From Amoebophrya sp. A120 (Eukaryota > Protista > Dinoflagellata), in assembly GCA_905178155.1 (NCBI GenBank), contig CAJINV010000004.1, forward strand, positions 8,454,882-8,518,881: DNA of 64,000 nucleotides, in the 5' to 3' direction. The notes beneath the pieces are model-generated. The model was not told the origin of the DNA. It searched no databases and saw nothing but the letters and a program-made list of their open reading frames with translations. The position numbers and the translations under genes are program-made. Of this stretch, positions 19,996 to 64,000 are shown one piece after another; position 1 is the stretch's first letter; every line of letters starts with the position of its first letter.

Positions 19996-21879
19996 CCTAA
20001 AAACTAGCCGGACAGGTTCATGCCAAGAACCTTCCCATCCGCATCGGCTTTATCTGTAGCTTTACTGAATATAGTCTTGTGTTTGCGATGAAGTATAAAT
20101 TTAAATACTTTATTGGAGCATATTCTTATGCTTAAAAATATGGAGGCATGGGTGCTACCCTCTATCGTGCGGGTTTCAACATTCCATTGGCACCATGGCC
20201 TACCGAGGGGAATTTTTACTGGCCTCGAAGGATACTGAAAACTGTAGCCATACGGTACGTTGCTGTCGCAGCAGCCACACTAGAGGAAATAAAGCCTGTT
20301 TCATTTTTTTTTGGGTGAGACGAGGTCGACGAGCATTTCTGGATTTCAGTCAGTTAGCTGGCCTACTTAGCGACGAAAATGTTAGCACAACAAGGAGCAC
20401 ACGCAGCCCACAGACGAAAGACTGCACGAAAAAAGGGAAGCCAGGACGACAACAAAAAGTACGATGAAAAATACGTATGTTGGTGTTTGTGTTGTCAGTC
20501 AGTAAAAAATGCAGAATATGTTGTACAGTTGGTACACCAACACGAGCGTACGACGGTCTGCCTTACCTTACGCACGAAAAAACCTACCACGACTAAATTT
20601 GACAGCGATTCCGACTCATCAGCACGATGAATTCCTGATGGTTCTCAAGAAGACGATTTCTTGCAAAGGTGGTTTAAGTTCACGTCACGAAAAAGACGCG
20701 CAATGCCGCATGCCTTGTTTCTTTTGTGGGCAACCGCAAGGTGGCAGGCCACAGGTCTTCTGCGGCCATGATCATGCAGCTGCCAATTCGAATTTTTCTC
20801 AATCAATGTTCTTTACAAACGGTTCGGCACTAGAATTCGTTTCTTAGGATTAAAGAATTTCTTCAACTTCAACAAAAAAAAATTATAGGCAATCACAAAT
20901 ACTAGGAGCACCAGAAATTTGGATCTAAAAAGAAGATTAACATCGAAACCGCTGCATATCTTGCTTGGGTAGTGACCTGGCGATAAGTACTTATTTACCT
21001 TCTTTGCAGGAGAAAAACGAGAGAATTCAGGTCACTTCACATCTCCATCTTCACTTGTAGAAACATAATTGCATAATATCCTTGCTCCAACTAATACACC
21101 ATAATACTTTCGTAATTCAGGGTAAAACTCTTCCTTTCCAAAAATCTAATTTACAAATCGTACATAGCCGCTTCGGTTCCGAACTTCTTTGGCTATAATT
21201 TGCGAAGAACTTTGAGGCTTTTTTTGTTTTCCAATCGACAGAAAAATATCATAAGTACTGCTTTTTGTCTTTTTCAAACAGCAAAGTCGAAATTGAATTT
21301 CAATTTTTAATATTCGCAGTTGCAGTAGAAGAAGCAGTAAAATAGTTTTGCTTTTTCACGGAAGAAATTTTGCAGAGAAGGCTTAGTTGAGTTTGGCAAA
21401 CGAAATAAACTTTGTACTGAATAAAACAAGGAGTGAAAGAAATTACGCTCTCTTTTGCAGAGAGCAAAATTTTTTTCAGTTTAGGTTTTTTTATTTTTGA
21501 GAAGATGAGATTTGAGTACCAAATAAGATTAATATTTATATTACGCTGTAGCTAGAAAGAACCATTTAGCAAAAAAGAATACCAATCGCAGAAACTTTAC
21601 TTTCAGAACGAGCGAAAGATTGATTTTTCGAGAACAGAAAAGATACGTCTTCATGTAAAGACATCAGAAACTTTTTTACCCTTTACATAGTGATAGTCCC
21701 AGTAATAATTCTGTGCACTACTTCCTGTTATCAAGATCAAGTGGTCAAACACAAGAAGAACTAGAACTCGACATACAAGTATCGGTCTGAAACAAAAAGA
21801 ACTGTGAACTGCGATATATTGCAAAAATCCTCCGGCCGGCGTCAGTGGGACTCGAAGCGCTGCTCACTTTTATACTTTC

Positions 21880-24800
21880 CTATACCAACGCAGGGGAGAT
21901 GGCCACCGGGTTCGAACTGCCAGTTCCAGCAGCACCGTCCACCAGGATCCTGTCGTCGGCCGGAATCGCGAAGTCGCGTTCCATCATGTGCGGCCCGCGT
22001 GGGGTTTTCTCGCTCTTTACCGCAGCCTCAATGCGGGTCTTCGTGATCTCAATCACGCGCGCGTCGAGCTGTTTTTGATGTCGTGTATTGGTTTCTCTTT
22101 CTTCTCATCGAGATGAGAGTCCATTTGGAAGATGAAACAAGATCAACTCCGATTAAGCTACGACACACTAGAACACAAAGTCTTCGTCTACCTTTTCATC
22201 CCCCCAAAAGGCCTTCATTCCCAGCAAGTGTCGTACGTCGCTCGCGGCGTATTCGATCAGCATAGGATGCAAGGGCCGTCGCGCCCATTCTTCGCCCTCC
22301 TCTTTGGTATACAGCTTCTGCCCGGCCTCCTTCAGCCTGTGATATTGAATATTGTTTTGGGGGTTGTGCGTGAGCGTGGTGGAAGTGTAGAGTAGAATGG
22401 GATTACGAAAGTGCATGCGTGTGTGCATGACAAACTGAAGCTCGTCAAAGGATGAAGTATACAATACTAGTATGGGTCGTATGCATGATGAAGTTTATAC
22501 AATAATGCTAATACTTCTGAATCCGCTCTCTTTGCGCTAGTGCCAGCACCGAGTAGTTTCGGAAGCAGCGGCCGAGTCCCACTACGTAGGTGTGCTTCGA
22601 AATCGGCTGCCCATACTTCAGGTGAAACAGCACTTGAATGTCATACACGTTCTCCGTTTTCACGCGAAACAGGTGCCACAGCTGTGATTGTGATGTTGTG
22701 TACGTGGTGATTTTGCATGACAAAGAAGATTTATCTACGCATAATTTTTGCATGACAAAGTAGAACCACAACTTCTATACCGCATCATTGTCAGCCCGGC
22801 CGTCGAAGACAATTTTGCACACTTTCGCATTTTCCAACAAACTCCGCATTCCGCAGACGGAGAACAGCGTTTCCCCGATATTATTTGCAAAAGCGTCCCC
22901 ACACCAGAGTCAAGATGGGAAATCTGCTAGACAAATCAGCCAGCTTTGGTCGTTTGGCATCACAAGTTTGTCCTCGTAGCGTAATCCTGTTTAGGTAGTT
23001 CAGCAGCATCACAGATCTAGTATATCATGCTGATTGTAGCATCACAAATTCCAAAACACGACTAGAAAATGCCTCTCATGGCGCTCCGCATGACAAACTT
23101 TTTTGCCACGCAGATTTGCATGACAACTCGGGGGTGGGGACGTTTTTACTCTGAATACCCGAGCGCCTTCACGTCAAACAGGTAGACGGGTGAGAGTTCG
23201 TTGCAAATCTGGATCAAGTACACCGCGCCGCTGCGGTATGAGAGTGCAAAACCCCGCCCCTCCCCCTCATTTGTCATGCAAAATACCAAACGCACCCTTT
23301 GCCTCTTGGCACTTTTTGCATGACAGATTCTGGTAGCTGCCCAAACAGCACTACAATCAGTCCGAGGTCGTGGATTTGCCATGCAAAACCTGCACTCTTG
23401 CCGACGCTTGTATTGCTGCTCATACCCTACACATAAGGGCGGAGGGAGGGTTGTGCACTCTCATATGCGGCACAAGTCCCGGCCCTCGATGTCGATCGCG
23501 ATCGGGAGATCGTCGCTTAGGAGTAAATATCAACTGCAAAAATGTCTGGGTCTGGAAGAGTGCATGTTTGTCATGCTTGTCCGGCATGACTCTTAAATCT
23601 GTCATGCACGTTACCCAAGGGCCCCACTTTTCTGTCATGCAGAAACGCAGTTTGTCATGCAGAATAGGCAACACCTAGAAGCTCAAAAATTTGTCATGCT
23701 GTGCCAGCACTTGTGGCCTCCTCATGATACGCCACCCAGCATCACAAATTTCCAGACCCATACATATTTGCAGTTCATAGTAAATCAATCGCCGCCTTCG
23801 CGGTGTCGGGTTGGTCCAAAAAACACACCGTTTTGATCGTGGTCGCCACTAACGTGGTGTCCTGGTAGTGCACGGACAGGGACAGACTCGGTGCGGTGGA
23901 CATGGAGGCGAGATTTTGGGTGGCTTTTTCGAAGTCCGGGTTGCCGATGATGTCGTCGTTGTGACTGGGGAGGGGTAGGGTCAGGGGCGGGTCTTCGTGT
24001 TTCTCCACCAGGTTCTTCACGAATTTTTGGAAAAAGGACTCGATCTTGGGCGGTGTCGTGCTGGTAATATTCGGTATGGAATGTAAATATGTCTGGGTCT
24101 GGAAGATTCTGAGACTTGTCATGCAGGTTTTGCATGAGTCATGATGTCTGTGATGCGTGCCCTAGCATCACAGATTTTTTGAGGGCGTCTTGATGCCTAT
24201 TCCGCATGACAATTGCCCTATCCGCGTAGCAAAAATCACACTCCCTTTGCTGCTCATGCAATACAGATTTTTTTGCAATCCAAATGCAGCATCACAAGTT
24301 GCATTCTTCCAGACCCAGACATTTTTGCAATGCATATTCGGTGCGGTAGAGCCAGAAACTTTTTCCTCGATGAGCTCGCTGTTTTTCTCGAAAGGGTTGG
24401 CGAGTGCCTCGAGAGGAATGGTACAATTATCGGTGTGCAGGACCTGTGGTTATTTATTTTGCTGATGACAATGCTTCTGCTTCGTTCACGTTCTTATACG
24501 ACAGATGTGATGACAATGCTTCATTCAAGTTTTTTTATACGAAGTTTATTATAGGAAATTTTACGGAACAAAGGGAAACTAAACAATTATAGCTACCTCT
24601 TTCTCCTCTCCAATCACGGCAGCAGTGTTGATATCAAATGTAAAAATGTCTGGGTCTGGAAGATTCTGAGATTTGTAATGCATGTTTTGCATGACCCAGG
24701 ATGTCTGTAATGCACGACCGGGCATCACGGATTTTGAGCTGGCTTCCTGATGCCTACTCCGCATGACAAACGCCCTCCCCGCGCATCACAAACTAGACTC

Positions 24801-35599: not shown

Positions 35600-36869
35600 C
35601 ATCCTCACAACCCCGGAATCCAGAATGCACTGCTCCTTGGGTGGTTTCGGATCGCGGGGGCCGTCGTGGTGGTACTACCGTTTCTCCTGCGGCTCTTGGA
35701 GCTCCGCCCACTTCCACCGGCTCTCTTTGTGGCTTTCGCAGGGCGGAAACAGCTGCACCAGGAGCAGTCTATCCTGAGTAAAAGAGTCCCCGCCCCAGAA
35801 TCAACGAGATGGGAAATCTGCTATACAAATCAACAAGCTTTGGTTGTTGCGCACGACAAGATTGGGCTCGTAGTTTGCTCCTCTTAGCTTCTGCAGCAGC
35901 ATCACAGATCGATTACGTGATGCTTCTTCCAAAATCACAAACTCTGGCGTGGGGACGTTCTTACTCAGGATACAGTCCTCCTCTTCTTCATCCTGGAGGT
36001 TCGGCTGTCGTTTTCCGGGCGTTTTTCTGAGAGTGCACAACCCTCCCTCCCCCTATTTGTCATGCAAATTCCCAATTCTACCTTTTTTCTGCTAGCACAT
36101 TTTGCATGACAGATTCCGAAAGCCAAAACCGCACTACAATCCTCTAGGAATTTGTCATGCAAAAGCTGCATCTTTGCCAGCGCTTATGTTACTGCTCACG
36201 CAACACAAATGAGGAGGAGGGGGAGTTGTGCACTCTCATAGTTTTGCTTTGGCAAGACCGCTCGACTGGCAACCGCGGGACCCGGGCAGGACCTGTGCCG
36301 ACGTTCTGTTGTTGTAACAATGGCACACTGCGACTGTTTCCCGCGATCAGAGGGGCATAGTTGCGGTGCCAGGTGCGCTGCTGTTGTTGCTGCTGCGGTG
36401 GCTGTTGTTGTCCCTTCGTACTAGGCTGCTGCTGCCCTCCCAACGCAGCAGCTGCTCCTCCCGCTCCTCGTAGTCGTCTCTCAGCATCGTCTTTCAGCTT
36501 TGCGGCATTGGGTAGCTGCGCGGCCGTAGCAGCGCCCGCGCTCTTGCCGAAGAGGTTGCTGTCGTCCGCATAGAAGTCGTCGTCTTCTTGAATTCCTAAA
36601 TTCGCCAAGTTGTAATCTGCAAGCGAGCTTCCCGTCGACATCAAAGCCGCAGTGCTGGGAATCGATGAGGACGCGACACTGGACATACTGCCCGGAACTT
36701 GCTGTTGTCCTTGCTGTGGTGGCCCACCTCCACGACCTTCATAGGGGTAGTGATCGAGCGTACCGTGTTGTCCTCGTCCGGGCTGGAACCGCCGGTGGGA
36801 TAAAAAGAGACTGTTTGCAGCTGGAAAAAATTCAAGCAAGACGAGGACAAGAACCAACGACGCCAACAT
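35600..36869 (-). CDS. Hypothetical secreted protein (3' end uncertain)
   Basis: ORF 36189-36869 with signal-peptide-like MLASLVLVLVLLEFFPAANS; continues through two introners. Confidence 0.5.
35770..35972. mobile_element. Introner, family B (short)
   Basis: Family B TIRs; DR cagtc. Confidence 0.9.
36026..36240. mobile_element. Introner, family D
   Basis: Family D TIRs (left end tct); DR gtttt. Confidence 0.9.
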
Positions 36870-45761: not shown

Positions 45762-46684
45762 TTCAAAAACTTGTGTGAGGATGGAGAGAACTTTTTGCTG
45801 CTTCGGAGTAATACTACGTGTAATCTGTAGTCGCAAAACTGGGAGCGACCCGGGCTCCACCAGCGGGAAAGATCAAAAACGGCGCCGGAGCTAGTACTTG
45901 TTATCTCCGCCAGTGCGCGCCGCCGTCGCCTCTATGAGGATGACTAGGTAGCAATACTATCGACCGCGGCGGCAGGCTAATACATTTTTCCTCCTTGCGT
46001 AAGTGCTGACCTCAGGGTCATCCGGGTCACAACTCGGAAGCTGCATAGGTGTACTAGAAGTCCTCAGCTTCGTTCAAAGCGAAGTCCAAGCCCGCAGAGG
46101 AGAAAGTCGCCAACGTCCGCGCCGTCCCGGGGGCTAGCATCTTGATACACCGGACAATCCCTTTCAAGACAACACCGAATTCTAAGTACCAAGGGATGTT
46201 TATTTGGTAGTACCGCCAGAAAAAGTAAAAGCCCGCCCCAGCGGTGTGGAAGAACAAACGGCGCAGCACTTTATTTTTGTGTGAGCCCATCTACTTGTAC
46301 ATTTACCACCACCTCTCACTCTTTTGTAGTTCTACCGTTATTTATTACGGCGTGCTTCTGCAAGAGCTTTCTCTCGTCTCGCGCCCCGCTCACAGCCACA
46401 CGTCTCACACCGCTTGTGGTTGGCCGGTCGTTGGAAAGAACACAGATCACGCCCCGCTGTGGAAGTCGTGTTTTCAACAGCTTTCAGAAGAGTACTATGT
46501 CGCGGCCATTTTAATTTTCATTTTGTGCAAAAATGATTAAAAAACGGTTTATCTATTTGATCTGTGACGTGTCCATTTCTGAACCAACTGTCAACCGAAT
46601 CCAAAGGCAGCGCACCATCTTCGAGGTCACAAGACATCATGTTCTTCTGTCCGGCACAGCAGACTCATCATGTTTACAGTACGC

Positions 46685-49600
46685 CTAGTAATCCTCCTCG
46701 CCTTCATCCCCGTAGCTCTGACCGTAGTCATCGGGCCTTCGCTTCTTCTGTAGGTGCGTGAAAGCGGCGAATGCGCCGCCGACTGTGAGCACGCCCAGCA
46801 CCACGCCGAGGCCGATGTATAACTGTGCGGAGCTCTTACTCTCCTCTGGTGCCGGTTTAGGCTTTGGTGGCGGGTCGCACGCGTCTTTCGCTTCCGAGAA
46901 AACCGGTCCGCAGCTCTGGGGTGGGGACGTTTTTACACAGGATAGCATGCCGGCTCCTCCACGCAGAGCTGCAAGCACTGGTCAGGCGTGGTGTCTTTGA
47001 AAGCGTCCGAACTCCGCCCGACCGTTCGGTTCGTCAGGTTCTTCGCGCGGAGCACGTACTCGTTCACGTGCACCCCCCGCAAGGGTCGAGTGCATAAACT
47101 TTTGTACTTGTCAGTGACTTCGGGAAAGGGAAAAACGAGCCAGCTGCGCGTGTCGTTGTACGTGAAAACGTTCTGGACCGACGCGAAGTAGCCGATCGGG
47201 TATCCTACGCAAAAACGTCCCCACCCCAGACTCAAAATGGGGAATCTGCTAGACAAATCCACCAGCTATGGTTGTTGCGCACGCCAAGTTCTTTTGCCCC
47301 GTAGTGTAAAAATCCTGTTTCGCTCGTTCAGCAGCATCACAGATCTAGCCTGTGATGCTGATTGGAGCATTACAAATTTTTAAACGCGACTAGAAGATGC
47401 TTCGTATGGGGCGGCCCCGCATGAGAAACATTGTGATCCTGATCATGCAGTTTTGCTGCATGACAACTCTGGGGTGGGGACGTTTTCACATAGGATATCG
47501 GGCCCTCGTTGATCAGTTCGAACGTCCAGCACGGTTTGTGCTCCAACCCAATCTGGTTCGCTATGGATTGCAAAAATGTCTGGGTCTGGAAGGTTGCAAC
47601 TTGTGATGCTGCATTTGGATTCTAAAAGAATCTGTATTGCATGACCAGCAAGACGAGTCCAGTTTGTGCTACGCGGGAAGGGCAGTTGTCATGCGAAATA
47701 GGCATCAGGAAGCCATCTAAAAATCTGTCATTCTAGCTCATGCATTACAGGCATCATGGGTCATGCTAAATATGCATCACAAACCTGGCAATCTTCCAGA
47801 CCCAGACATATTTGCAGTTAATATCCGCACGGAAGTCACAAAAGTAGTCCTTCGTGGGTCCGGGGGTGTCGGCCGGGCCCCCGTCGAACTGCGGCGCGAT
47901 GATGCAGTCGTGGTCCGCGTGCTTCGTTCCGCGGTCTATGGTAAATTGTAACGTCGAGCCCGGCGGAAGTTGCCACTTTGTGATCTTCTGTTTCGGCACC
48001 ACATCAGGCCCGGCGGGGTCGTCCCAGAAGGCTTCCTCGTCTGGCGTGGGAGCGCCCGGGGGGATCTGTAACAGCATAAACCCCGTCTCGTGCAGCTCAA
48101 ACGGCATGTTGAACTTGCTTTTCCGGAGTTTGCGGATCACAAACCCAGTCGGCGTTATCGAGAACGCTGCCTTGTCGAAAAGCACTTCCCTTCTCGCACG
48201 AAAAAAGAGAAGCCAGGACGACAAAAAAAAGCACGATGAAATAAAATACGAATGTTGGTGTTCAAGTTCGTGTTGCCAGTCAGTAAAAAATGCAGAATAT
48301 GTACAAACAGTTACTACACCAACACGAGCGTTGTACGAGGGTCTGCCTTACTTTACGCACGAGATGAAAACCTAGCACGACTAAATTTGACAGCGATTGT
48401 TCCAACTCATCAGCACGATGGATTCCTGATGGTTTATGAAATGTAAAAATGTCTGGGTCTGCAAGAGTGCATGTTTGTCATGCTTGTCCGGCATGACTCT
48501 TAAATCTGTCATGCACGTTACCCAAGGGCCCCACTTTTCTGTCATGCAGAAACCGAGTTTGTCATGCAGAATAGGCAACACCTAGAAGCTCAAAAATTTG
48601 TCATGCTGTGCCAGCACTTGTGGCCTCCTCATGATACGCCACCCAGCATCACAAATTTCCAGACCCATACATATTTGCAGTTCATAGTAAATCGATCGCC
48701 GCCTTCGCGGTGTCCGGTTGGTCCAAAAAACACACCGTTTTGATCGTGGTCGCCACTAACGTCGTGTCCTGGTAGTGCACGGAGAGAGACAGACTCGGTG
48801 CGGTGGACATGGAGGCGAGATTTTGGGTGGCTTTTTCGAAGTCCGGGTTGCCGATGATGTCGTCGTTGTGACTGGGGAGGGGTAGGGTCAGTGGCGGGTC
48901 TTCGTGTTTCTCCACCAGGTTCTTCACGAATTTTTGGAAAAAGGACTCGATCTTGGGCGGTGTCGTGCTGGTATTCGGTGCACCAGGAGCAGTCTATCCT
49001 GAGTAAAAAAGTCCCCGCCCCAGAATCAACAAGATGGGAAATCTGCTAGACAAATCAACAAGATTTGGTTGTTGCGCATGACAAGATTGGGCTCGTAGTT
49101 TGCTCCTCTTAGCTTCTGCAGCAGCATCACAGATCGATTAGTACGTGATGCTTCTTCCAGCATCACAAACTCTAGCGTGGGGACGTTCTTACTCAGGATA
49201 CAGTCCTCCTCTTCTTCATCCTGGAGGTTCGGCTGTCGTTTTCCGGGTGTTTTTATGAGAGTGCACAACCCCCCCTCCCCCTCATTTGTCATGCAAAATC
49301 CCAATTCTACCTTTTTCCTGTTAGCACTTTTTGCAGGACAGATTCCGAAAGCCAAAACCGCACTACAAGCGAAAGTCGCACGCGTCTTTCGCTTCCGAGA
49401 AAACCGGTCCGCAGCTTTCGTACATTGAACGCACGCGTCCGAGAGCAGGCGGATGCAAGGCAGTAAATCACGGATAGCCCACGGAGGCGATGGTCCCGGC
49501 CGAGGCGGGACGCAAGGCAGTAAATCACGGATTGATACGCAGAAGAAGTGTTGTGTCTGCCCTGCAAAAACGCAAGATCTAAATTTGATGATCGCGAAAG

Positions 49601-52600
49601 CGGAAGACTTTGTTTGCGGACGAGGTCGTGTAAAGATCAAAATGAAGGTGCAGTTTCCATTCATGCTCATTAATTGTTAACAGGATAGATGATGATGATG
49701 ATGAATGTCAGATCTCCTGTCCTCCACCTCTTAGTTCACTACTTTCCAAATGTGCTACAAGGCAGAAAACGCCGCACGTATGCGCTGTGTGATTTCTTCT
49801 GCGCCGACTTAGCCGTTTGCGCGAAGTCGGAGGAGCTGTTAGATATTTGTTACTTTGTCCAATCATAAGCCGTTCGGTGGCCTCACTACAAACAAACAAA
49901 AAACCCCGCGACGCTCTAGCGTTTTTGATGTCGCTGGCATTAGTTGTGCGGCCCGCCGTGCTTGTGATTTTGATAGCATGCCATGGCTATTCATAGATCT
50001 CTGCAATCGCACTCCCTGCGCAGTTCACCCACCAAGCGAAAGTGCGCGGAAACGATGACACTCAACCAAGGCAGTGCCACTGCGCACTGTAGACATCGCG
50101 GCGAGATGCCCTGCGACGGTCACAGTGGAGAGTAAGGAGAGAGCCCGGCCGCGGCCAGCCCAGCAAGCTACAAAGAGCAAGCCGCGCGAGCCACGCGCTA
50201 AAGCCACACAGTCATAGCCAAGTCCCGGGCGTAAAATAGCTTGGCCAAACCGACCGGACCCACCGAAAACCTTCCCCGAGTGCTATTCAAGGCAGGGGCC
50301 GTAAATCGTTCGTCCGACGGCAGCGGGTCGCACGCGTCTTTCGCTTCCGAGAAAACCGGTCCGCAGCTTTCGGAAGCCCGTCCCGCAAGACACTCCGCGC
50401 CGCAGCGCTTACCAAAGGAAGGGCCCGAGCTCTGGCCCCCGCACGAAAATTAGCCCGCGGGCTACGCAGGCAGTGCCGGGGCGGCCATTGGAGGCCGCCG
50501 CCCATGCTGGCTTGTAAATTTCCGCTCCTGACGAGAATGGCGCCACGCCCCCGCCCCCAAGAGGCGGCCTATCTTTTGTCGCTTCTGCGTTGGCCTTGTA
50601 TATTCCGCCGTAGCTCCGGGCGGCTCAGCAAAACCGCCTCCAGGAGTCACTTCTATTGTTTTCGCGGGCCCTTTTGGGGTTTCGTCTAGCCACCCGCCCG
50701 CAGACGGAAAATTTCGAGCCTCGCCTAGCTTCTCAGAAATCTTCTTGCAAAACAACCGAGCGCGCAGAATCACGATCGAAGTCCACGCCTTCGGGCTTTA
50801 GAAGCTTGCTACGCGCGCGGCATTTTAGAAAGAGCCGGGTGGCGACAGGCTTTCGAAGTCGAAAACAAGGGGGCGGGCAGCGTTCCGAGCCGTTTGCCAC
50901 AACTTGGCTCCCCGCGGGCCCTCGAGCTGGCCTGCCCGCCTGCGGGTAGTGTTGGGGCATGATGCTCGACATACAGGCCGAACACCATGCCCCATCTTTG
51001 AAGCACCGCCGCCCACCCCAAGAGGAAGGACAGAAGTTTCCGCGCCATGCTTGTTGAGATCGGGCATTGGGAGGGTCGCACGCGTCTTTCGCTTCCGAGA
51101 AAACCGGTCCGCAGCTTTCGTACATTGCCGGCTCGTCGTATGGCACGAAAATAAAACTGTTGTATCAGTCTCAATTTGTTTTGCGGAGTTTGCTTGCTGC
51201 CTCCGGTTCCTGTCATGCTCGACATGGAAGATGAAGTCGGAAGGCCGCGGGGTTATGGTTTTATTGTGTTGCTAGAACAAAATGTCCGAATGGGAGCAGC
51301 AGGTTTGAGGCTTCTAAATACAGTTTTTTTTTTTTTTTTTTTGCCAAGGGAGGACTGGATCAAGCATGGACAGTGGTCCACTTTCCTGACTACTAGAAAG
51401 AAAATCTACTCATTCGCAAAATGGTTCTGCTCAGGATCTCGTTGTTGGTTGCGCCAGCAAGGGGGATAAAAGTAAGGCTGGTACGCGGATACAGGTGCAA
51501 GGTGTTCCAGTGTGAAGACAGATTCAGACCAGCGGCACAGCACCTCCCGCGCCCCGGCCGGGCCCCGCGCGCTCCCCTTCCTGGTCTGGCCTCACTGGAT
51601 GACTTCTAAATACAGTTTCAACTTTTTTCACGTCCGATACCTCACTAACATCCGCTTTCAGGTCGATTATCTTCTTTTTCGCCAAGTCGCACCCGGCGTC
51701 TTGAAACGCCTTCAGCCCATATCAGAGTGAAAAATGCGCCCGCCCCAAAAGTTGCGAATAATTTGTGATGCGAAGTTTCCAAAAGAAAACTCTTTGTCAT
51801 GCATGAAAAGAGAATGAATCTTTCTGACGCGAAGTCTAGATGAGCATGAGATGTATATAGCATCGCTTGCATGACAAGCGCCGCTCTTGCTGGGGTCTTT
51901 TGCAATGCAGGTTTTTGCTATTCACGATAAGAAATCTGTCATGCTGATAGACGCAAGAGGGCGAATGTTTCATTTGGAACGGTTTGCAATACAAATGCTC
52001 CCAAGTTCTGGGGTGGGCACATTTTTCATTGTAATAGTCCGCAGAAGCAGCTCTGCGAGATTTGGAGACACCGAAACCGTTCCTCGTCGTCGTATATCAA
52101 ATGCAAAAATGTCTGGGTCTGGAAACTCGTAATGCTGTGTTGGGAATAGTGAATGCACTGTAATGCACAGCCAAGCATGAGAAATATCTGCGCTTCTTTG
52201 TATTGCGTTTTTCGCATGAGAAACTGCGTTTTTGCATGACAGGCAAAAGGGTCTCTTCTTGGACACGCATTACAAGCTTTTTTGTCATGCCACCAGACAA
52301 GCATGACAAATCTCGCAATCTTCCAGACCCAGACATTTTTGCATTTGATATCGTGGACCTCGTCCGGATCGAACGCGTCACTTCCCACTTTCCCGAAACA
52401 CGGCCCCAGTACGTGGTCTTCGCAGGCCGCCGCGTCGCAGCTCGCGAAGGCCCCGTTGCACAATCGGTCGGCCCAGGTGGACGGCGGCTCCACGTCGTAT
52501 CAAATGCAAAAATGTCTGGGTCTGGGCACTCGTGATGCTGGGTGGCGTCTCATGATGAGGCCACAAGCGCTGGCTCAGCATGACAAGTTTCTGAGCTTCT

Positions 52601-55600
52601 GTTCTAGGTGTTGCCTATTCTGCATGACAGACTGCGTTTCTGCATCACAGAAAAATGGAGCTTTTGGGTAACGTGCATGACTGTCATGCATGTTACCCAA
52701 AAGCTTCATTTTTCACATGCATTCTTCCAGACCAAAAAGCTGGCATGACACCCATGCATTCTTCCAGACCCAGACACTTTTCCATTTGATACGTCGCAGA
52801 GCCCGGCCATTTGCTGCAGGAAGAGCAGCGAGTCGGGTTTCAGTACGTCTGCGTCGACGCCGCAGGCGTCCTTCCAGGCGGTGTGCGACGATTTGCAGGG
52901 GTCGTGCTGGCAGTCACCTGGAATGATGTCGTCGTCGGGAACTTCCATGCTCGGCTCCAGGTAGAGGCAGTTCGAGTAGTAGCTTTCGGCCTTCGTGACG
53001 CAGTCGTCGATCAGGTTTGTGTCTTTGCCGATAGAAGAGAGGCGAATCGCTATCCCGGGCAAAAACGTCCCCGGAACCAGACCTAGAGTCAAAGTCAAGA
53101 TGCATAACTATTTTACTTAGACTTACACAAAGCAACAGCTTTGTTTTGCATTTGCTGGTTGTCACGTCGCATTAATAAAAGTGTGGGATCGCAGCGTCAT
53201 CCTGATAGCTTAGCTATTGTAGCTGCATCAAAATAAATCGGCCGCCTTTTCCTGATTTATTTACTGCTCCACCCAGATAGCGATTACAACAAGCTTTTCG
53301 TGTGGTTGCGCATGAGACGCATCTATTCGTCTCAGGCATACAGATTTGCATCACAAACTACTTGGCATTGGGGCGCTTTTCCTCAACAGGATAATCATCA
53401 CATAGACCATGGTCTTGCTCGTCCACAGACAGTATGCATTGCAAATATGTCTGGATCTGGGAAGATGGAAACTTGTGACTCTCTCTGCCGCACTCGCACA
53501 AAAATCTGCAATGCACGAGTGTCAAAACCTGTGGCCCACTTTTGGCCACCCTGGGAAAGGATGTGTCATGCAGAATAGGCATTGCAAAGCTATTGCGCTA
53601 GACCCTGTAGTACTGCTGGGCCGTGCAAATTAGAACTTCTTGGCGGCGGCGGCCACACAAAAAGAAAAACACAAACAGCATGACAAACTTCAGCATATAT
53701 CCAGACCCAGCCATGATGTTTTTATTTGATAAACACTCGTTATCGGTATCCGCCGTGCAAGCGTCCTGCGCACCATCATGTACACTGCAATCCGCACCCT
53801 TTTCGGAGTTTCGGCTCCTGCAGAAAAACGGGGTTGTCTTTGTAGAAGTACTATCGGCTAGTGTTTTTACCTTCGACGACATCGTTGCGCCGGATGAGGA
53901 TTCACTCTGGAGCAGTTTGTATGAACTGCAAAAGTATCGCACTCGTATAAATGCATCACAGCATGAGAAATAAAATTTGTCATGCTGATTTACCTAAATA
54001 AAAATATTTGTAATGCAAGACTTGCATTTATACGAGTACGATACTTTTGCACAGGATAGTTTGTTCCCGGGTAGACGAGCAGGTGCTGTTTTCCTTTTCT
54101 CGACCTCGTCGTCACGAAGGACGTATCCTGTGCAAAAGTATCGTACTCGCATTGCAATCATGCATTACAAATCTCTTTCTTAAGGGTAAATCTGCATATA
54201 CAAATTTTATTTCTCATGCTAAGGAAATTTGTACTGCATTTATACGAGGGAGTACTATACTTTTGCAAATAATAGGACGTCAACATCATCATCTGCTTCG
54301 ATTCTATTCTTGTCGGCTGCTGCTGTTATGTTGCTCGGACTGGTTACGACCAGGGAGTTGGCCGCGCGCGGCCCGGACTTAGCTGTAGTATTGCCCTGTA
54401 GAAGTTCCGACGAGGAGCGGTTGGGAAACACTGCTGCTGGCGCAGGAGTTTGCTCATGGCCGCCCGGCGCAAGGCCGCGGTCCGATACTGCCAGACGCTG
54501 CTTTGATTGCGAAAAAAAATGAAAATCGTACTTATGCATTTTCACAATAACAAATTTCAATTTCTATCTTTATTTTTTCTTTATCTTTTGGAGAAGAAAA
54601 AATGAATTTACGCATGAAGCTTTGCGCCGGGTAGCAGATCTGTCACACGACATGCTGTAGCGCAAATAGTACGAACAAGTACGGTAGTTTTGCAATGAAT
54701 ACGCACACCCCTTCGCCAGTTCGCAAAAACGTGGGCGCGAAATCGTCATACTCGTCGGCGCGCACGAACTGCCCATCTTTTTGTTGGACTATTGCTTTTT
54801 CTTCGTTACTAACCAGTGGATTTTGGTTGCTTTGGGGCTCCTGCGGCAGCTTCGCTTGATTGTCCTCGCTGAGTGGCGTAGTTCCAGATGATTTACTGCT
54901 GGGCGCTTGATGATGTGCAGCGGGGGCCGTTTCCAACTCCCCTGCTCCGGCGGCCGCGCTGGCGTTTAAAAATCCGCTCGCGGCTGCGATGTCGTCGATC
55001 TCCTGTTGCGTGTCCAATACTAGACCGGGACCAGCCGAAACTGATGGCACAATAGAAACGGAGTCGCGATAACGAAGCAAAACCGCCGGTGGGTGACTGA
55101 CGCACAAGTTGCTCGGCTGAACAGAAGTAGATTCCCCCGGCGTTTCCTGGTGCGCTTCCGGGTCTGCAGAGTAGAGCTTGTTGAGCAATTCGGCGTACTC
55201 GCTGCTGTTCTGCTTCCAACCCAACGCTTTCTCGAGCGCACTGCGCCTCACGCAGAGTGTTTCTTCTTGAACGGTAAAGGAACAAGGGTCACTGTGCCGT
55301 TCAAGTCCACGGACAGGCTTTGTTGCCGTGGCTGATGTCGGTGGCCCAGTACTTGCTGGACCGGCCACGGCTGGCGGTCCCGTGGAGGATGCGGCCATAT
55401 TGATTTTAGATGTTTTTCAACATTGAGTCGCTGTTGATACTAAAATTTTTTTGCACTTTTTCTTCGCTGTGTTTTTTACGTTTCATATTGCGATAGTCCA
55501 CGTATTCTAAGCCCCTCTAGAAGACCCTCCGGAGGTGGCTATGGGCCTCTGACGGCAGTGGTCATGTACATGTTTTCGTTTGATCTTCTTCTTCAGATAG

Positions 55601-56311
55601 ACACAGCTGTGTAGCAATTCAGTAGGAAGAAATCGCACTTCATCATTTGTCACCACTACGCATCCTCGCCGCAAGCGCGTGAAACTACTGTGGGCGTCAA
55701 TGAGATCTTTTTTGGCTTCGTCTGCCCGGCGCAAGGCCGCGGTCCGATACTGCCAGACGCTGCTTTGATTGGGAAACTTCTTCCACAACATGTTGCCCAC
55801 CTTGTCCATCTTGTTGTGGTGTTCCAGATCCAGTATGATCTTTATTTCTCTCATCCCGCAGGAGCAGCAGCTGGGGTTCCGCTCCGGCCTCCAGAGCGAA
55901 GGCGGCGTTCTTCTGGAGAGAAGAAGAAGATGGCTGAAAATGCTCTTGGTTTATTACCTCATTTAGATCCCGCACGGATGTTTTTGCATCGGTTCTCGTT
56001 CTCCCGCCCAGGTCGCTCTGCGGGGTGGCGGATGAAGACGATACTAGTGCAGCAGTCTTCTCTTCGCGCTGATGCAACCCGTTTAGCTCATGCTTCCCGT
56101 CGTTCTGCTCCGCATCAAAGATGTCTTTAGTGTCCTGATCTGCAACATGCAGCTGCAGTAAATGATCGGTTCGAGAAGTATCAATCGCGCACACGAAGAC
56201 CAGCTGCACTGGGTGTTGCTGCCGCCATCGCCAAAAAGACGTTCCGCTGCAGCAGGCCACTGCGAACAGACGCAGCAAACACGGGCGGAGAGGCGGTCGC
56301 ATGTTTCTCAT
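46685..56311 (-). CDS. Cys-rich type I membrane protein interrupted by 8 introners and two long-DR-flanked insertions (functional status unknown)
   Basis: Signal-like N-terminus (ORF 55697-56311), then ...SQSKQRLAVSDRGLAPG[insert]GHEQ..., Cys-rich exons 51640-53919, EPAMYESCGPVFSEAKDACDP[insert]PPKPK..., TM LYIGLGVVLGVLTVGGAFAAF and a short tail. The frame is continuous once the inserts and one repeat copy each are removed. Confidence 0.7.
46872..46915 (+). repeat. 44-bp target repeat, copy 1 (others at 49375-49427, 50323-50372, 51073-51116)
   Basis: gggtcgcacgcgtctttcgcttccgagaaaaccggtccgcagct occurs four times (copy 2 lacks the first 2 nt). Confidence 0.95.
46914..48197 (+). repeat. Copy of 17842-19125, including introner copies 47201-47497 and 47562-47823
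   Basis: Constant offset of 29072; identical ORF translations. Confidence 0.95.
48196..48434 (+). repeat. Diverged copy of 20424-20643
   Basis: gcacgaaaaaag...ttcctgatggtt with several substitutions and indels. Confidence 0.9.
48435..48978 (+). repeat. Copy of 23528-24074 (introner plus exonuclease exon)
   Basis: Starts at the first base of one introner and ends at the DR of the next. Confidence 0.93.
48979..49368 (+). repeat. Copy of 35754-36139 (introner B copy 48995-49200, truncated D from 49254)
   Basis: High identity with scattered substitutions. Confidence 0.93.
51139..51639. mobile_element. Decayed long introner-like intron
   Basis: tatggcacgaaaataaaactgt...acagtttcaacttttttcacgtccgata; DR cgtcg/cctca; join DVS-E-EPAMY in frame. 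Confidence 0.6.
51720..52036. mobile_element. Introner, B-related TIR variant
   Basis: tatcagagtgaaaaatgcgcccgcccc...ggggtgggcacatttttcattgtaata; DR matches 3/5. Confidence 0.8.
52095..52350. mobile_element. Introner, family A
   Basis: DR tcgta/tcgtg. Confidence 0.9.
52498..52791. mobile_element. Introner, family A, with internal fold-back
   Basis: DR cgtcg. Confidence 0.9.
53051..53393. mobile_element. Introner, family B (diverged)
   Basis: DR atcgc/atcat; join VYVMI-RLSS. Confidence 0.8.
53433..53731. mobile_element. Introner, family A (diverged)
   Basis: DR gacag/aacac; join NEC-LWTSK. Confidence 0.8.
53920..54058. mobile_element. Introner, family C
   Basis: DR gtttg. Confidence 0.92.
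54124..54274. mobile_element. Introner, family C
   Basis: DR ggacg. Confidence 0.92.
54462..54509 (+). repeat. 48-bp target repeat (second copy 55724-55771)
   Basis: gcccggcgcaaggccgcggtccgatactgccagacgctgctttgattg is exactly repeated. Confidence 0.95.
54506..55724 (-). pseudogene. Captured 5' fragment (upstream region, first exon, truncated introner) of the 58607-61452 gene family
   Basis: 55181-55724 is near-identical to 61235-61778; 54506-55180 is a diverged homologue of 60467-61234; ORF 54643-55398 parallels 60706-61452. Confidence 0.85.
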
Positions 56312-57079
56312 TTCGATTTGTGCTTCATCCTAAAAACCTGCAGCACGTCGACATCGACGCAGCATGTATTTCTATATGCACCACCACCACCACCAAGATG
56401 AACCACAAACATCTTCTTCATAGCAAGAGTGCCCCATTTGTTCTACTCTTTTTCCGGAGACACCATGTCCGCTCTTCGTCGCTCAAAAATCCCCAAACTT
56501 CAAGCTCACGACACTCTTCACGACAGATTGTCGACCCAGGACAAACAGATAGAAGCTTAAGCTTCAGTTTGATAAACACAAGGGTCAAAAATCTCAATAA
56601 ACACATTCGCTCTTCCTGCTCTAACTCCATCCAGTCACGAGCGGCTTCAGATGTAGAGCTCCCGCAGCCACTTCGCTTCATGAAAGCACCACCACGGCCC
56701 CTTCGGAACAACCCGGAAGTGGCAAACGAAGATGCCGATAAGTTTAATAAGTAGTGCTTGTGTTTGTTCTTGTTGTATTCAAAAAATAAAAAAATCAACC
56801 TCCATGACGCGAAAGATCGAGGAGCATCTTCATCCAGCCGAAAATGGTGTCGGTTCTTCGGATTCTATTCGTAAAACATCACAGTTGCACAGGAAGAACT
56901 GCCTGCTCCTTCTGTCTTCGCATTCGCTGTTCTTGAAACCAGTATAAAACTAACAGTTATAATCTAAATCTTCTTCATACAGCTTGAGCTTTCGCCTTCT
57001 CGGAGCAATAACCAACGCAGATCGAGTGGTAGAGATGGGCCGCTCCAGTTCCAGAAACATCTACGTACTACCGTCCTCC

Positions 57080-58606: not shown

Positions 58607-61452
58607 TCACAATTCCAATTGCGGGAAAACGCATCTGATTTCGATTGGCTCTTTCATCGGTTCCTTCCGCCGACGACGTTTCTCGAAAACTTCCGCCGCC
58701 ACGTCAAGCCAGGTGTGGTCCGCTTTGAGAAAGCCGGACCCGATCTTGTCTTTGTTTATTTTCCCAGATGATGCTGGTTCTTGCGCTTGCTGTGCGCTAG
58801 GGGATTTGTTTTTGCCACCGTTGCTGCTGGTGCCATTATTCTCCGCTTCCTCCTCGTCAGGAAGAAGTTTCTCGCGGTTGTTATCTGCTGTTGTGTTTGC
58901 CGGAGCGGATGCCATTAACGCGTCTTGTTCACCGCCCTCGATCATATCATCGTCCCGCCTCTCATCCTGACTGGCGTCAACATTGTCATCGGCAGGAACA
59001 AATCCCGTTTCATCCTGTAATTCCTCGACCAAAAACTTGACGTTTTCTGGAGCGTACTCTTGGAAGCCGGGAAAAATGTTTTTCCACCATAAATTCTCGC
59101 TCTTCTCCCCCGTTATAATGTCCGCAAACCTCGTGCCGTCGACGGCATGCTCCCGAACGATCTTCACCAGCAATTTCAGTTCCTCCAAAAATGTTCTCGC
59201 TTCTGCGCCTGTACCAAATTCGAAATCGATCTTTCTTGCAATTCCGCTGTCGGGCATGTTAAGTGCAGGTTGGAAAGTGATGCGCACGGCTTGCTTGTCG
59301 TCCTCTGGAGGGACGGCACTGGAATCCGACTCGTTGATAAACATATTCGCATCTGTATGTGCAGGATTAGTGGATAAATCTCCGTGGTCTTGTGCGCTGA
59401 CATCTTCCCCGGCTACAGCAACTGCCTCGTCGTCGCCGGTGGTTTGCGGCAGAGGCCCGTAAAGAACTACAGCTGCTCCTTCTCGCGCGTGCGAGCTGCT
59501 ATTTTCACCGTCTTCTTCAACTCCGATTTCTTCGTTCTCCTCGCGTTCGTAGGTCCCAGGCGGCCAGTCGGAAAATTGTAATTCTTGTCCTCGCAGCTCG
59601 ATCACAATGAAACCGGTATAATAGGTCGCCTCCCGAGCTTCCTCCGTTGACCAAAAAACTGGTATGCTACGGTCTAGCAATCCGAAGTGGTGGCTCAAGC
59701 CAAGCTTGACACGCTCGTGAAGATCCACCGACAAACTCGGGATATCGTCCTGCTGGACCCAGCAGTGGTATACTTCGCCTGTATACAGACAAACCCACAA
59801 TCCCAAGTAAGCTTGCGGAAAAACTTCTGTGTCGCGAAAAGGCATCTCGTGAGGGAATGCGTCCGCCGGCGAGCGGGTGATGCGTTCAACATTATGCGGG
59901 TTCGCGAAGCGAAGAAGTGCCGTGTGCCGAAACTGGCGACAATCCCGCTCCTTCTTCAACGCGCTTTGGTCCCAGCAATCCTCGTCCAGGTCCAACAACT
60001 GCTCGCGGTACCGGAGACGCCGGGCGAACGTGCCCTCCGGTAGCTGAAACTCCTCCTCCAGCCGCTTCCCAACGTCCGCAACAAACGCTGCCTCGAGCTT
60101 GATGGCTTCCTGTCGGAGCACGCTTTCCAGTGTTCGAAGTATTGGCATCGGTTCGGCGAGCAGACAGGGGTGGACCGCGAAATCCCGCACACTAGGACAC
60201 GGTGCTACGGCCACACTAGACGCCTTTCCTGCGGTAATCTCGTGCTTGCCCATGTTCACCAGGCGAAACGGCAAACAGAGTCCGTCCGCTGCTGCGGCCG
60301 CGGTTAAGATATTCTGTCTAGGGTCGTGGACACACGTTCTTAGCAATGTGCCATCGCTGTCGGTTGCAGCGGCGTCCCACTGCCTTGCCATCAGTCTTAT
60401 CAGCTCCAACCTTCTTTGCCTCTTTTTCACACACCGTAGAACCGCGGCAGCGTACTCGTACTATGCATTGCGAAAAAATCGTACTTCTAGACTAAAGCTG
60501 CGCATCTTCACAAATTACTTTATTCGAAGTGCGAGGTAACAAACTCAATCTGGAACTTCGCGGTTGAGTCCTTATCCGCCCGGCCGGCCGGATGACAACT
60601 CAACCACTTCTGCAAAAAATACTGAAAGCATTTTTTGAAAAAGAAAAAAGAAAATCCTCGTGAAGTTTCACGCCGGTTAGCAGATCTGTCACACGACATG
60701 CTGTGTCACACGACATGCTGCAGCGAAATTAATACGACTAAGTACGGTAGTTTTGCAATGAATACGCACACCCGTTCGGCAGTTTGCAAAAACGGGGCCG
60801 CGAAATCGTCATACTCGTCGGCGGACGCGACCACGACCTGCCGATCTCGTCGTTGCACCGATGCTTTTTCTTCGTTACAAGCCAGCCGATTTTGGTGATT
60901 GCGGGGCCCCTGCTGCAGCTTCGCTTGATTGTCACTCTCGTCGGGCGGCGTGGTTCCAGAAGATTTACTGCTGGGCGCTTGAAGATGTGTTGTTTTCAAC
61001 TCCTCTCCCCCGACCGGGCTGGTGCCCGTCAATCCGACCGCAGCGGCGATGTCTTCTATTTCCTTCTGCGTGTCGAATATCAGTTTGGGAGGAATCGAAC
61101 CTGATGGCAGGATCGAAATCCTGTCTTGGGAACCAAGCAAAACCGCCGGCGGATGCTTGGCTTCCAAGGTCCTCAACAAAGTTTTTTTCCACGTATCATC
61201 ATGGACCACTTCCAGGTTTGCAGAGCCGAGCTGCTTGAGCAATTCGGCGTATTCGCTGCTGTTCTGCTTCCAACCCAACGCTTTCTCGAGCGCACTGCGC
61301 CTCACGCAGAGTGTTTCTTCTTGAACGGTAAAGGAACATGGGTCACTGTGCCGTTCAAGTCCACGGACAGGCTTTGTTGCCGTGGCTGATGTCGGTGGCC
61401 CAGTACTTGCTGGACCGGCCACGGCTGGCGGTCCCGTGGAGGATGCGGCCAT
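58607..61452 (-). CDS. Hypothetical protein, tandem paralog 1
   Basis: ORF 60706-61452 joins 58607-60430 in frame (ERVC-EYAAAVLRCVKKR) across one introner. Confidence 0.75.
60462..60764. mobile_element. Introner, family C-like (long)
   Basis: tatgcattgcgaaaaaatcgtact...agtacggtagttttgcaatgaata; DR cgtac/cgcac. Confidence 0.85.
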
Positions 61453-62025: not shown

Positions 62026-64000
62026 CTATAACTGCGGAAAAACGCACTTAATCTCGATCGGCTCCCTCATAGGCTCCTTCTTTCGCCGCCGCTTTTCAAA
62101 GACCGCCGTTGCCACGTCGAGCCAGGTCTGGTCTGCACGAAGGATGCCGGCGTCGTCTTGTGAGCCAGAAACGACTGCGGTGTTGGAAACCGCAGAAGTG
62201 CTGATGGCAGTGTCCCCTCCTGCGACGGCAGCAGTTTCTTCGTCGGGGAGCAGCCTCTCCCGTACAAGCCTTCCTGAAACCGCGTCGAGCGACGTTATGC
62301 AGTCGATAGCCATCGTCGCCTCGCCACAGGATGAATGCTTTATTTCCTGTTGTTCCAGTGAGTTGTCGTGTTCGTCGGAGGTCGTGCTGACGTCGGGAGA
62401 AGCTGGCTCCTGCAGTTCCTCGACCAGAAACTTCACGTTCTCTGGCTTGAACACCCCCGGAGCTGGAAAAACGTGTTTCCACTCGAGGCCTTCGCAGTTG
62501 TCTTTGCCCGTGACGATATCTTTCCACGCCGTATCCAGGAAAAAAACTGTGTAAGTGTAACTTTGTAGGTGTAGGAAGAGCAGCATCACAAATTCGTTTT
62601 GCATCACACGGAAAACCTCTCATGCGCAGCTAGTACGTGGAAACGCGTATGATAGTAGCCTATGACGCACTTCCAGCATGACAAGTGTAACTGTTTTGCA
62701 TTTTCTGCATCACAGATTTACACTTGCACAGTTTTTTTCTTGCATACGCTGTCGTCTTGGAGTACTCACGAATGATTTTGTGCACCAGTTTCAATTCGTC
62801 GTAGAACTTGATAGCTTCGTCAGCGGTTTTGAAAGCCAGGTCCATCGTTTTCATGTCAGTGTCGTCAAATTCCTCATTATTTGCGAACAGCGTAAAACGC
62901 ACAATGTGATAGATGTCATCGACGTCATCGAGATCGATCTCATCGTCTTCTTCAGCAGGTGAATGAGACTGCAGGATGCCGTGTTCAACAACCGCCCGCT
63001 TGACATCGTCCCAGTCCCAGTCATGGTGGTCGTCGCGGAAACTTGTATGGTCAATCTTGAGTTTATCCACCTAGAGAAACGCTTTTTTATTAATGCAGAT
63101 ACTGCAAGAAAAATGCCTAAAGTATTCGTCCGGCGTGGCCTGCGTGATTCCACTGCAACTTCTGCAATGGCAGATATACAAGTTAGTATAGTATCCAGAG
63201 TAATCCAGCGTTTTTCATCGTGGATACAGCTCTATCACCACACAGTAGGTGCCCTCGTATTTCCTCCGAAAAGTCAAAGCCGACGAATCAGTGTCCGCGC
63301 AAAACAGAATCGGCACGTCGTCGACCAAAAACGGGAACTCGGTCTCGTCGTTGAGATCGATGACGTTGTCGCGCGACGGGTCCTCTTCCGTCGCCACGAG
63401 ACTCGTTTTGACAAGGTTGCGCTCCGCGTCGCAAATAATGAAGCACCGCTGCACCGAGCCACGATACGGACACACCCTCAGGCACAGCGACCCTGCTGTA
63501 AGGAGCTTCGGAATATCTTCATCTAGTATAGAAAACTCGAGGTCGTCATGCTCACGTTCCCGCACTATCACTGTTGCTCTGTGACGAGAGGAAAAGCGCA
63601 GTTCAGGCAAAAATGGTGACTCGGGAAAAAGAAATTCATGCCGCACTATGCTTTGTGCGTCCAACAATCCCCCGGTCCATGCGACACCGTCCACCAACGA
63701 CGCAGGCCTCACAGGCTCTCGAAACCGGGCTCGCTTGTCAAAATTGTTTGGTGGTAGTTGAAGCTGCCTTTCCAGTTTTTCGACGACACCCACCATGAAC
63801 GCCGCCTCTGTTGTAGTTGCAAATTGTCGCATCACGCCTTCCAGCGTCTCAAAAACACTGATGAACTCAGCTGTCAGCCGTAGCTTCTGAGCTCGTGAAT
63901 TCAGTGGTAGACGCCCGGGTGCCGCGACACACAGTGCTGTTCCGTTCGCTATCTCCTGTCCGCCCATTTTCATCAGGCGAAAACTGATTCCCACCCCGCC
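62026..64000 (-). CDS. Hypothetical protein, tandem paralog 2 (5' end outside window)
   Basis: Shares FRL..MG..EI, ELKL..KI.RE, PENVKFLVEELQ and TWLDVA..VFEKRRR.KEPM.EPIEI.CVFPQL with paralog 1. Confidence 0.75.
62532..62746. mobile_element. Introner, family E
   Basis: DR cgccg/cgctg. Confidence 0.9.

Follow-up and report, generated by a model that had tools for sequence, protein, structure and literature searches.

Recurrent templated-insertion hotspots with long direct repeats in a gene of Amoebophrya sp. A120

Introduction

Can a long insertion into coding sequence become an intron and leave the gene that received it intact? The question is raised by a gene of the dinoflagellate Amoebophrya sp. 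A120, located at 46685-56311 of the 64,000-nt stretch of DNA analysed here (the window), with all of its features on the minus strand. Its coding sequence is interrupted by two inserts, insert 1 and insert 2, which are flanked by long direct repeats. An initial annotation made from the sequence had proposed that both could be spliced whole as new in-frame GT-AG introns, adding 4 and 3 residues, respectively, and that this would be a route to intron gain by break repair with the gene left functional; exact excision within the repeat by the non-canonical pathway was named as a second option.

We find that this locus holds recurrent templated-insertion hotspots, and gene-preserving new introns are not what the data show. 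Our preferred interpretation, to which we assign a probability of about 0.6, is that both inserts are captured DNA, likely placed by recurrent repair of staggered breaks, that they are kept in assembled RNA with the gene likely split, and that insert 2 supplies a predicted hybrid start. The break-repair part of the proposal is supported by microhomology at the junctions and by the sites being empty or differently filled in a second, related genome (L001), while the part concerning gene-preserving introns is not.

The window carries many elements of 125-310 nt that start with TAT, seven further letters and at least three A, with the complement at the other end. This is the terminal motif given for the introners of A120 (Farhat et al. 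2021, PMC7789003). Two database proteins attributed by their sources to Amoebophrya sp. A120 match the window at 100%, exon for exon. According to the same paper, non-canonical introns make up more than 60% of all introns in Amoebophrya A120, the known introners have ends paired by terminal inverted repeats (TIRs) plus direct repeats of 3-5 nt, and the published assembly is described as short-read scaffolds with gap closing.

Sequencing data

Six of 11 sequencing runs (X1, X3, X4, X5, X6, and X9) were compared with the locus. Run X1 consists of DNA contigs and may be the assembly's own sample. Runs X3-X6 are assembled contigs from one sample of one study, and we took them, as a guess, to be RNA; introners that are kept in the DNA of run X1 are skipped there. 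Run X9, raw RNA reads under the same species label, touched an introner end only and was uninformative. The contigs are built from words of 31 letters by an assembler that uses SPAdes-like simplification rules (PMC12424806), the sides of a joint were held to a rule of 31 letters, and contig depth is no measure of the share of molecules. Runs X3 and X4 have no RNA cover over the exon with the proposed insert-1 donor, and run X5 has none over exon 1; the RNA evidence on insert 1 comes from runs X3 and X4. Published gene models were not counted as independent evidence since they may rest on the same RNA.

Splice letters and direct repeats

The proposed splice letters and phases are present at both sites. 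At insert 2, GT at 55750-55749 and AG at 54499-54498 (minus strand) are in frame with a net gain of 9 nt, and at insert 1, GT at 51104-51103 and AG at 46917-46916 (minus strand) are in frame with a net gain of 12 nt. The insert-1 AG does come from a captured introner, as had been claimed, and lies within the first 29 nt of its terminal repeat, a copy of 17870-17842. When such duplications were modelled on ~2,310 exon windows, an in-frame GT/AG pair arose in 61% of them for 44 nt and in 66% for 48 nt, and each of the two sites offers 10 in-frame GT/GC-AG pairs. Since such pairs are expected so often by chance, the letters carry little weight alone. The flanking exons had also been described as free of stops, which is correct for exon 1, exon 2, and the last exon and incorrect upstream of the insert-1 donor, where the frame is open over a short stretch only (a presumed exon at 51131-51105).

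The direct repeats are exact, with 48 nt at insert 2 and 44 nt between the outer copies at insert 1 (44-53 nt overall); to judge by their sequence, repeats of this length and exactness are far beyond chance. Insert 1 turned out to be three inserts between four repeat copies instead of one insertion. The inserts themselves are not introners. Their flanking repeats of 44 and 48 nt compare with 5-7 nt in 15 of 15 other TIR-type insertions measured, scans covering spans to ~480 nt listed no paired terminal inverted repeats of 8-20 nt at the insert ends, and the end sequences of both inserts are not complementary to each other. Compared with the window, both are mosaics of local single loci, not members of a repeated family.

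Insert 2 and its transcripts

Insert 2 and the features around it are as follows.

55724-56311, minus strand: host exon 1, with a hydrophobic signal-like start and an L001 orthologue; RNA contigs in runs X3, X4, and X6
55724-55771, minus strand: left copy of the site-2 repeat, 48 nt, containing the proposed donor GT at 55750; RNA contigs cross it unchanged
54510-55723, minus strand: insert 2, a copy of ~61778-60467, comprising upstream DNA, exon 1, and most of intron 1 of a neighbour gene
54703-55398, minus strand: captured exon of 232 codons, in frame with host exon 2 after a 202-nt splice
54501-54702, minus strand: 202-nt GT-AG intron, a captured introner whose 3' terminal repeat is truncated, with a host AG from the duplicated target as its acceptor
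54462-54509, minus strand: right copy of the site-2 repeat, with tandem AGs at 54502-54501 (used) and 54499-54498 (proposed)

The likeness of the copy to its source is 99.1% in the first 545 nt but drops to 76.5% in the remainder of the exon, and the two differ by five indels that keep the frame. In the diverged part (24% divergence), the ratio of nonsynonymous to synonymous differences per site (pN/pS) is 1.0. The source intron is an old introner at 60462-60764, and the copy ends a few letters before the end of this introner, with 4 nt of microhomology to the host. At the source locus, the published splice of the introner (60458-60765) is readable as GT-AC, and a GT-AG option 3 nt longer is also present; in the captured copy, the donor of this introner is spliced to the host AG. 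The source gene (P0005; 58610-64000) has a diverged tandem paralogue at ~62030-64000 with 28-43% identity.

Sequence found only in insert 2 occurs in contigs of all four RNA runs (X3-X6), and contigs pass from the repeat into insert 2 in runs X3, X4, and X6. The table of joints for 54279-56500 is complete and contains a single row, 54500-54703, at which 202 nt are skipped as a GT-AG intron on the minus strand. This splice was found in run X5, with 45 letters on its short side, and the intron is present in DNA, where a run X1 contig continues through the donor. Its donor is the captured intron's own start. For its acceptor it uses the host AG at 54502-54501, which precedes the proposed AG by 3 nt, so the pyrimidine-rich 3' end of insert 2 works as a splice acceptor region. 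The splice joins captured codon 232 in frame to host exon 2. What had been a non-canonical introner was truncated, acquired a host AG, and is spliced like any GT-AG intron, with the first exon of a neighbour fused to a surface-type protein. With insert 2 kept, the frame of exon 1 stops after 204 codons at 55699. The locus is divided among published models, of which P0003 extends from the tail of insert 2 to 51527, and the unspliced insert-2 frame is a separate protein in the database collection.

Contig boundaries were simulated for each splicing model and compared with the RNA runs. The layout in run X4 is that of full insert-2 retention, and the layout in run X5 is that of a transcript starting inside insert 2 and using the 202-nt intron. 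Runs X3 and X6 have the layout expected if retention is partial and a single repeat copy links exon 1 to exon 2. The joint that would yield the proposed gain of 9 nt by removal of 55750-54498 is absent from the contigs of all four runs, as are the contig breaks predicted for it at 55751, 55759, and 55730. The contigs set limits on this comparison. Exact removal of insert 2 is not visible in them because the 48-nt repeat is longer than the 31-letter words. Under SPAdes-like simplification, a small bubble can lose its arm of lower coverage, which could conceal a minor form with the gain of 9 nt.

Insert 1 and its transcripts

Insert 1 is built from four repeat copies (R1-R4) around three fillers: X1, X2, and a chain of four pieces, A-B-C-D.

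51073-51131, minus strand: presumed short host exon with repeat R1 (51073-51127); proposed donor GT at 51104, presumed acceptor at 51132
50373-51072, minus strand: filler X1, G+C-rich; DNA contig over 50408-51102
50323-50372, minus strand: repeat R2, a copy of the site-1 repeat
49428-50322, minus strand: filler X2; a window search for its source found none
49375-49427, minus strand: repeat R3, a copy of the site-1 repeat
48979-49368, minus strand: piece A, a copy of 35754-36139, 95.9% over aligned letters
48435-48979, minus strand: piece B, a copy of 23528-24075, 97.6%, with both ends exactly on introner ends
48196-48434, minus strand: piece C, a copy of intergenic 20424-20643, 92.3% over aligned letters and 85% with gaps
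46914-48197, minus strand: piece D, an exact 1284-nt copy of 17842-19125, ending within the introner terminal repeat that gives the AG at 46916; its DNA depth is about twofold
46685-46915, minus strand: repeat R4 (46870-46915) and last host exon, with a predicted transmembrane stretch and an L001 orthologue

Pieces A-D keep the genomic order and orientation of their sources. Of the five joints of the chain, three have microhomology of 1-2 nt, one has 6 untemplated nt, and one has neither clearly. A source was traced for five of nine filler pieces (A-D and insert 2) and not for fillers X1 and X2 or two fillers of L001; that of filler X1 was sought in both the window and L001. The raised DNA depth on filler X2 suggests further copies elsewhere, and Rfam gave no match in 49400-51700.

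Removal of insert 1 at 51104-46916 was not encountered; the acceptor is unspliced in runs X3 and X4, and the interior is present as spliced RNA. Record 10 of run X3 and record 16 of run X4 cross 46916 unspliced, and the depth across this position is about that of the last exon (44.4 vs 46.5 in run X3, and 18.2 and 17.3 for records 16 and 17 of run X4). Record 17 of run X4 traverses pieces B, C, and D with three inner introners removed and contains the C-D joint, which is specific to the insert. The joint 51105-46915 was not seen among the 15 joints listed out of 1196, and a rare form with the whole of insert 1 spliced out may exist in RNA. When insert 1 is retained, the frame of piece D, once a 60-nt middle exon is allowed for, stops in the captured terminal repeat and does not share the reading frame of the last exon. 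Over 46500-50400, the 3' part of insert 1 and the last exon form RNA with the inner introners removed. Run X3 has the source letter at 48694 and 48715, with a depth of 8.8 of 53.3. Filler X2 may supply a start or a trans-splice site for this downstream RNA.

A third insertion ends the host frame

The part of the gene between the two inserts contains a further insertion.

51527-54500, minus strand: host exons 2-9, a Cys-rich region with seven introner-type introns (model P0003); the frame ends in the poly(A) insertion
51327-51602, minus strand: poly(A)-ended insertion of 276 nt with a 19-A run at 51342-51324, supplying an in-frame stop after 51527

Given its poly(A) end, a 16-nt target duplication (51618-51603 and 51326-51311), and an empty site in the relative, the segment 51327-51602 is by its sequence features a retrotransposon-type insertion. 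It is located at the 5' end of a host intron and is absent from L001, where the empty site is single-copy. One spliced 1336-nt contig of run X3 extends from 54491 to 51354, past the presumed donor near 51612 and into the poly(A) insertion. Contigs of runs X3 and X5 end within 6 nt of each other near the 19-A run; both runs belong to the one study, and priming at an A run would look the same.

This has a direct bearing on the idea that the gene was left functional. The RNA contig and P0003 both reach the stop after 51527 in this third insertion, upstream of insert 1, and the full reading frame is not restored. Pfam gave nothing above cut-off for any of six proteins, one L001 filler frame among them.

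The same sites in L001

L001 is orthologous to the locus, at 88-97% over aligned letters, and contains neither the poly(A) insertion nor insert 1. Its site 2 is occupied by two fillers of ~1.45 and 0.96 kb, set between three copies of the repeat found there in the window (repeats of 35 and 50 nt); the fillers match neither insert 2 nor any window stretch beyond 40 nt. The two fillers are independent even if L001 merges two strains. The first of them starts with a 13-nt recopy of the target.

The positions of the repeat ends follow a pattern. At site 2, the ends of the left copies, one in the window and two in L001, fall within 4 nt of one another, while the starts of the right copies lie ~36, 48, and 54 nt upstream. 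The three left repeat copies at site 1 likewise end within 4 nt of each other. Three hits on one nucleotide across two genomes mean that the placement of these insertions is not random, and its cause can be searched for genome-wide.

At site 1, L001 has no long insert. Instead, it has one introner within the repeat and another exactly at the end of the window's left copies. An L001 introner within 2 nt of the site-1 end has a chance of ~1%, estimated by hand and post hoc from four L001-specific introners in ~1,900 coding nt. This introner is no closer to the introner of piece B (88.5%) than to other family members (87-90.5%). Between the window and L001, pN/pS of the host exons is 0.58 over 545 codons in 9 pieces, with two short exon pieces left out.

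Origin of the inserts

An important question is how unrelated fillers could come to lie between long copies of the same exon sequence. We propose that nicking of the sense strand at one constant position, with a second nick 35-55 nt upstream, would leave 3' overhangs. The free sense end could then copy other templates, return to the overhang through 1-4 nt of microhomology, and recopy the target. If ligation failed, the end might leave again, which would build an array of repeat, filler, and repeat whose right end is constant and whose left end varies. Introner ends or an introner transposase may help to create the breaks and switch points, and pieces A, B, and C may have been copied from a haplotype unlike the one now at the source loci.

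Microhomology of 1-4 nt is present at most insert junctions. Donor-side ends lie within 8 nt of an introner end in three of 10 cases, two of them exactly, against a background of 2.6% (P ~0.002, post hoc; the list of 48 introners is incomplete, and one end moves between 5 and 9 nt depending on the microhomology). The excess hints that breaks or template switches may occur at introner ends. A 9-letter motif near the left end of both repeats is a weak lead, as it also occurs at 5 other places in the window.

Two other causes were considered for the fixed site. A single retroelement was rejected, as the six fillers have neither an end nor a poly(T) beside the fixed end in common. A strong target hairpin is unsupported, with values of -13.6 and -12.1 kcal/mol at the targets (exon quartiles, -12.7 and -10.8; 5th percentile for exons, -15.4).

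The divergence of the pieces from their sources differs, with 4.1% in A, 2.4% in B, 7.7% in C, and none in D. The level in A, B, and C is similar to that between the window and L001. The exon in piece B has 6 silent and 0 replacement changes in 95 codons, and because the changes are all silent, the difference arose in a working gene and not by decay of the insert. Merged contigs of run X1 keep the source letter at 48694, 48715, 55497, and 55628, and the insert-only depth is not raised, which argues against a closer template in the A120 genome. The sources of A, B, and C lie within one block (20.4-36.1 kb), so their divergence would be accounted for by a single exchange with a diverged haplotype, whether it preceded or followed the insertion. 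A paralogue elsewhere may also have been the template, above all for the 24% diverged part of insert 2. Sex in the Amoebophrya complex has been inferred from genome likeness (PMC7018713). If the diverged fillers did come from another haplotype, they would be sequence evidence of recombination between strains.

A wider picture may be drawn, in which site-specific re-nicking, perhaps by the introner transposase at present or former introner positions, builds arrays in exons, fillers come partly from a diverged partner, repeat-guided splicing excises kilobase fillers exactly, and captured exons seed hybrids. We regard this combination as speculative, with only a slight chance of being right as a whole. 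If fillers do come from a diverged partner chromosome, they would record hybrid or sexual stages.

Weighing the alternatives

An assembly artefact, with gaps filled chimerically from nearby sequence, would suit the exact 1284-nt copy in piece D and the genomic order of pieces A-D, and the published assembly was indeed gap-closed on short-read scaffolds (PMC7789003) and is possibly of the same sample as run X1. It is nonetheless very improbable. Run X1 contigs hold insert-only sequence without differences at 50408-51102 and 54681-55228 and break where several repeat copies predict, and insert-only letters and joints occur in both DNA and RNA contigs. Differences of 2-24% from the local sources are present in the 3' part of insert 2 and in pieces A, B (silent only), and C, and the same kind of structure is found at the same site in L001. 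The shared parts have DNA depths of 48 and 50.6, about double the 27.5-29.8 of the flanks. The insert-only parts have depths of 19.4 and 21.1, about a quarter below the flanks, and the shared parts fit the flank depth plus ~21. The lower insert-only depth could reflect cells without the inserts, or bias.

This depth is also one of the points in favour of insert 2 being removed exactly to one repeat copy in a sizeable share of molecules, so that exon 1 still joins exon 2. Such removal might proceed through repeat-guided non-canonical splicing in RNA or through DNA recombination between the 48-nt repeats in part of the culture. The simulation of this model reproduced what runs X3 and X6 show, namely a 650-nt contig (56373-55724), a point of exit at 55753, and a further contig starting at 54491, and the depths in run X6 would sum (16.1 in, with 4.9 passing to insert-only sequence and 10.1 to exon 2). 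The prevalence of non-canonical introns in A120 fits as well. The join is, however, invisible to 31-letter words, contig depth does not measure shares, and the same layout would be given by a coverage gap, by clipped trans-spliced leaders at the new acceptor, or by a removed minor bubble. Introners moreover pair their ends by TIRs and 3-5 nt direct repeats, and insert 2 as a whole has neither. We consider exact removal unlikely, if the most serious competitor to retention at insert 2, and it would not restore the full protein given the stop after 51527. The 48-nt repeat does offer a clean test of whether direct repeats alone can guide non-canonical splicing in Amoebophrya.

Splicing of each insert whole as a GT-AG intron, with 3 and 4 residues gained and the gene functional, is improbable as the main path. 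In its favour, the proposed sites are in phase, insert 2 has an acceptor region that is used, contig simplification could hide a minor form, and three of three right copies at site 2 keep the proposed AG, the shortest of them (copy 3 in L001) beginning at it. Neither predicted junction was seen in assembled RNA. The insert-2 joint and its predicted contig breaks are missing from all four runs, and the insert-1 acceptor is read through in both runs that cover it, at depths like that of the last exon. RNA also passes the intron donor upstream of insert 1 into the poly(A) insertion and its stop, and chance alone would give in-frame pairs in roughly two of three duplications of this kind. The locus thus does not demonstrate an intron gain with preservation of the gene.

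Retention of captured DNA accounts best for these observations, and several points weigh against it. All of the RNA evidence consists of assembled contigs from one sample of one study, in runs whose RNA nature was guessed. The 202-nt splice is present in only one of the four RNA runs. At 46916, the short sides measure 30 and 28 letters, slightly below the 31-letter rule. The layout of runs X3 and X6 has a gap at the 3' end of insert 2, and some RNA may skip the insert. The nicking nuclease is hypothetical, and the hybrid protein is a prediction. The host exons are under purifying selection despite the interruption of site 2 in both genomes, which fits recent events and also fits removal at the RNA level.

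Comparison with known systems

Proposed routes of intron gain have been listed previously (PMC3296678). The closest known case, the neointrons of Daphnia pulex attributed to repair of staggered double-strand breaks (Li et al. 2014, PMC4202315), is similar in that exon insertions lie between direct repeats of exon sequence, unrelated insertions arose independently at one site in separate lineages, and secondary insertions fall where an earlier one had occurred. The Daphnia neointrons differ in having repeats of 4-12 bp and being functional introns, whereas the repeats here are 35-53 nt and the inserts are 0.7-2.5 kb with traceable gene pieces. The likeness to a Daphnia-type neointron is one of origin; insert 1 does not behave as a functional intron, and insert 2 may be removed from part of the RNA. 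Tandem duplications at paired nicks (Schimmel et al. 2021, PMC8355091) duplicate overhangs of 43-50 nt nearly whole, often with microhomology, which matches the repeat size at this locus. Those were induced in mouse and human cells, while here the events are natural, at fixed nucleotides, with kilobase fillers from 6-30 kb away.

Like the introners of A120 (PMC7789003), the inserts carry whole or cut introner copies, and the 202-nt intron descends from one; unlike them, they have no paired TIRs, their repeats are about ten times longer, and they form no one family. Other kinds of A120 introners, as far as the available part of PMC12130899 describes them, include none with such long repeats. 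In the model of proto-splice-site duplication (Hellsten et al. 2011, PMC3265369), the left copy contributes a GT and the right copy an AG, as was proposed here. At this locus, AG and GT are not adjacent but 9 and 12 nt apart, use of the left-copy donor was not seen, and the observed splice uses a captured donor. We found no report of long-repeat insertion hotspots in Amoebophrya in the portions of the literature searched. The locus appears as gene remodelling caught in the act, in a lineage whose splicing is unexplained.

Additional observations

Introner turnover within this one gene (46685-56311 vs L001 649-7090) is fast and amounts to four window-only, four L001-only, and three shared introners at ~5-10% divergence. 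The L001 filler at 2748-3711 contains an open frame of 138 codons, which we take to resemble the tail of a retroelement integrase; it has no Pfam match. Compared with the window, the last exon of L001 has a deletion of 14 nt close to its end (7069-7090), which alters the tail of the protein and leaves the transmembrane stretch in frame. L001 also carries an 858-nt insertion at 11412-12269 that is absent from the window and has long terminal inverted repeats unlike those of TAT-type introners and no long direct repeat. Elsewhere in the window, two introners of a rarer family (10017-10326 and 11151-11463), 1.1 kb apart, are 82% alike, which suggests local hopping.

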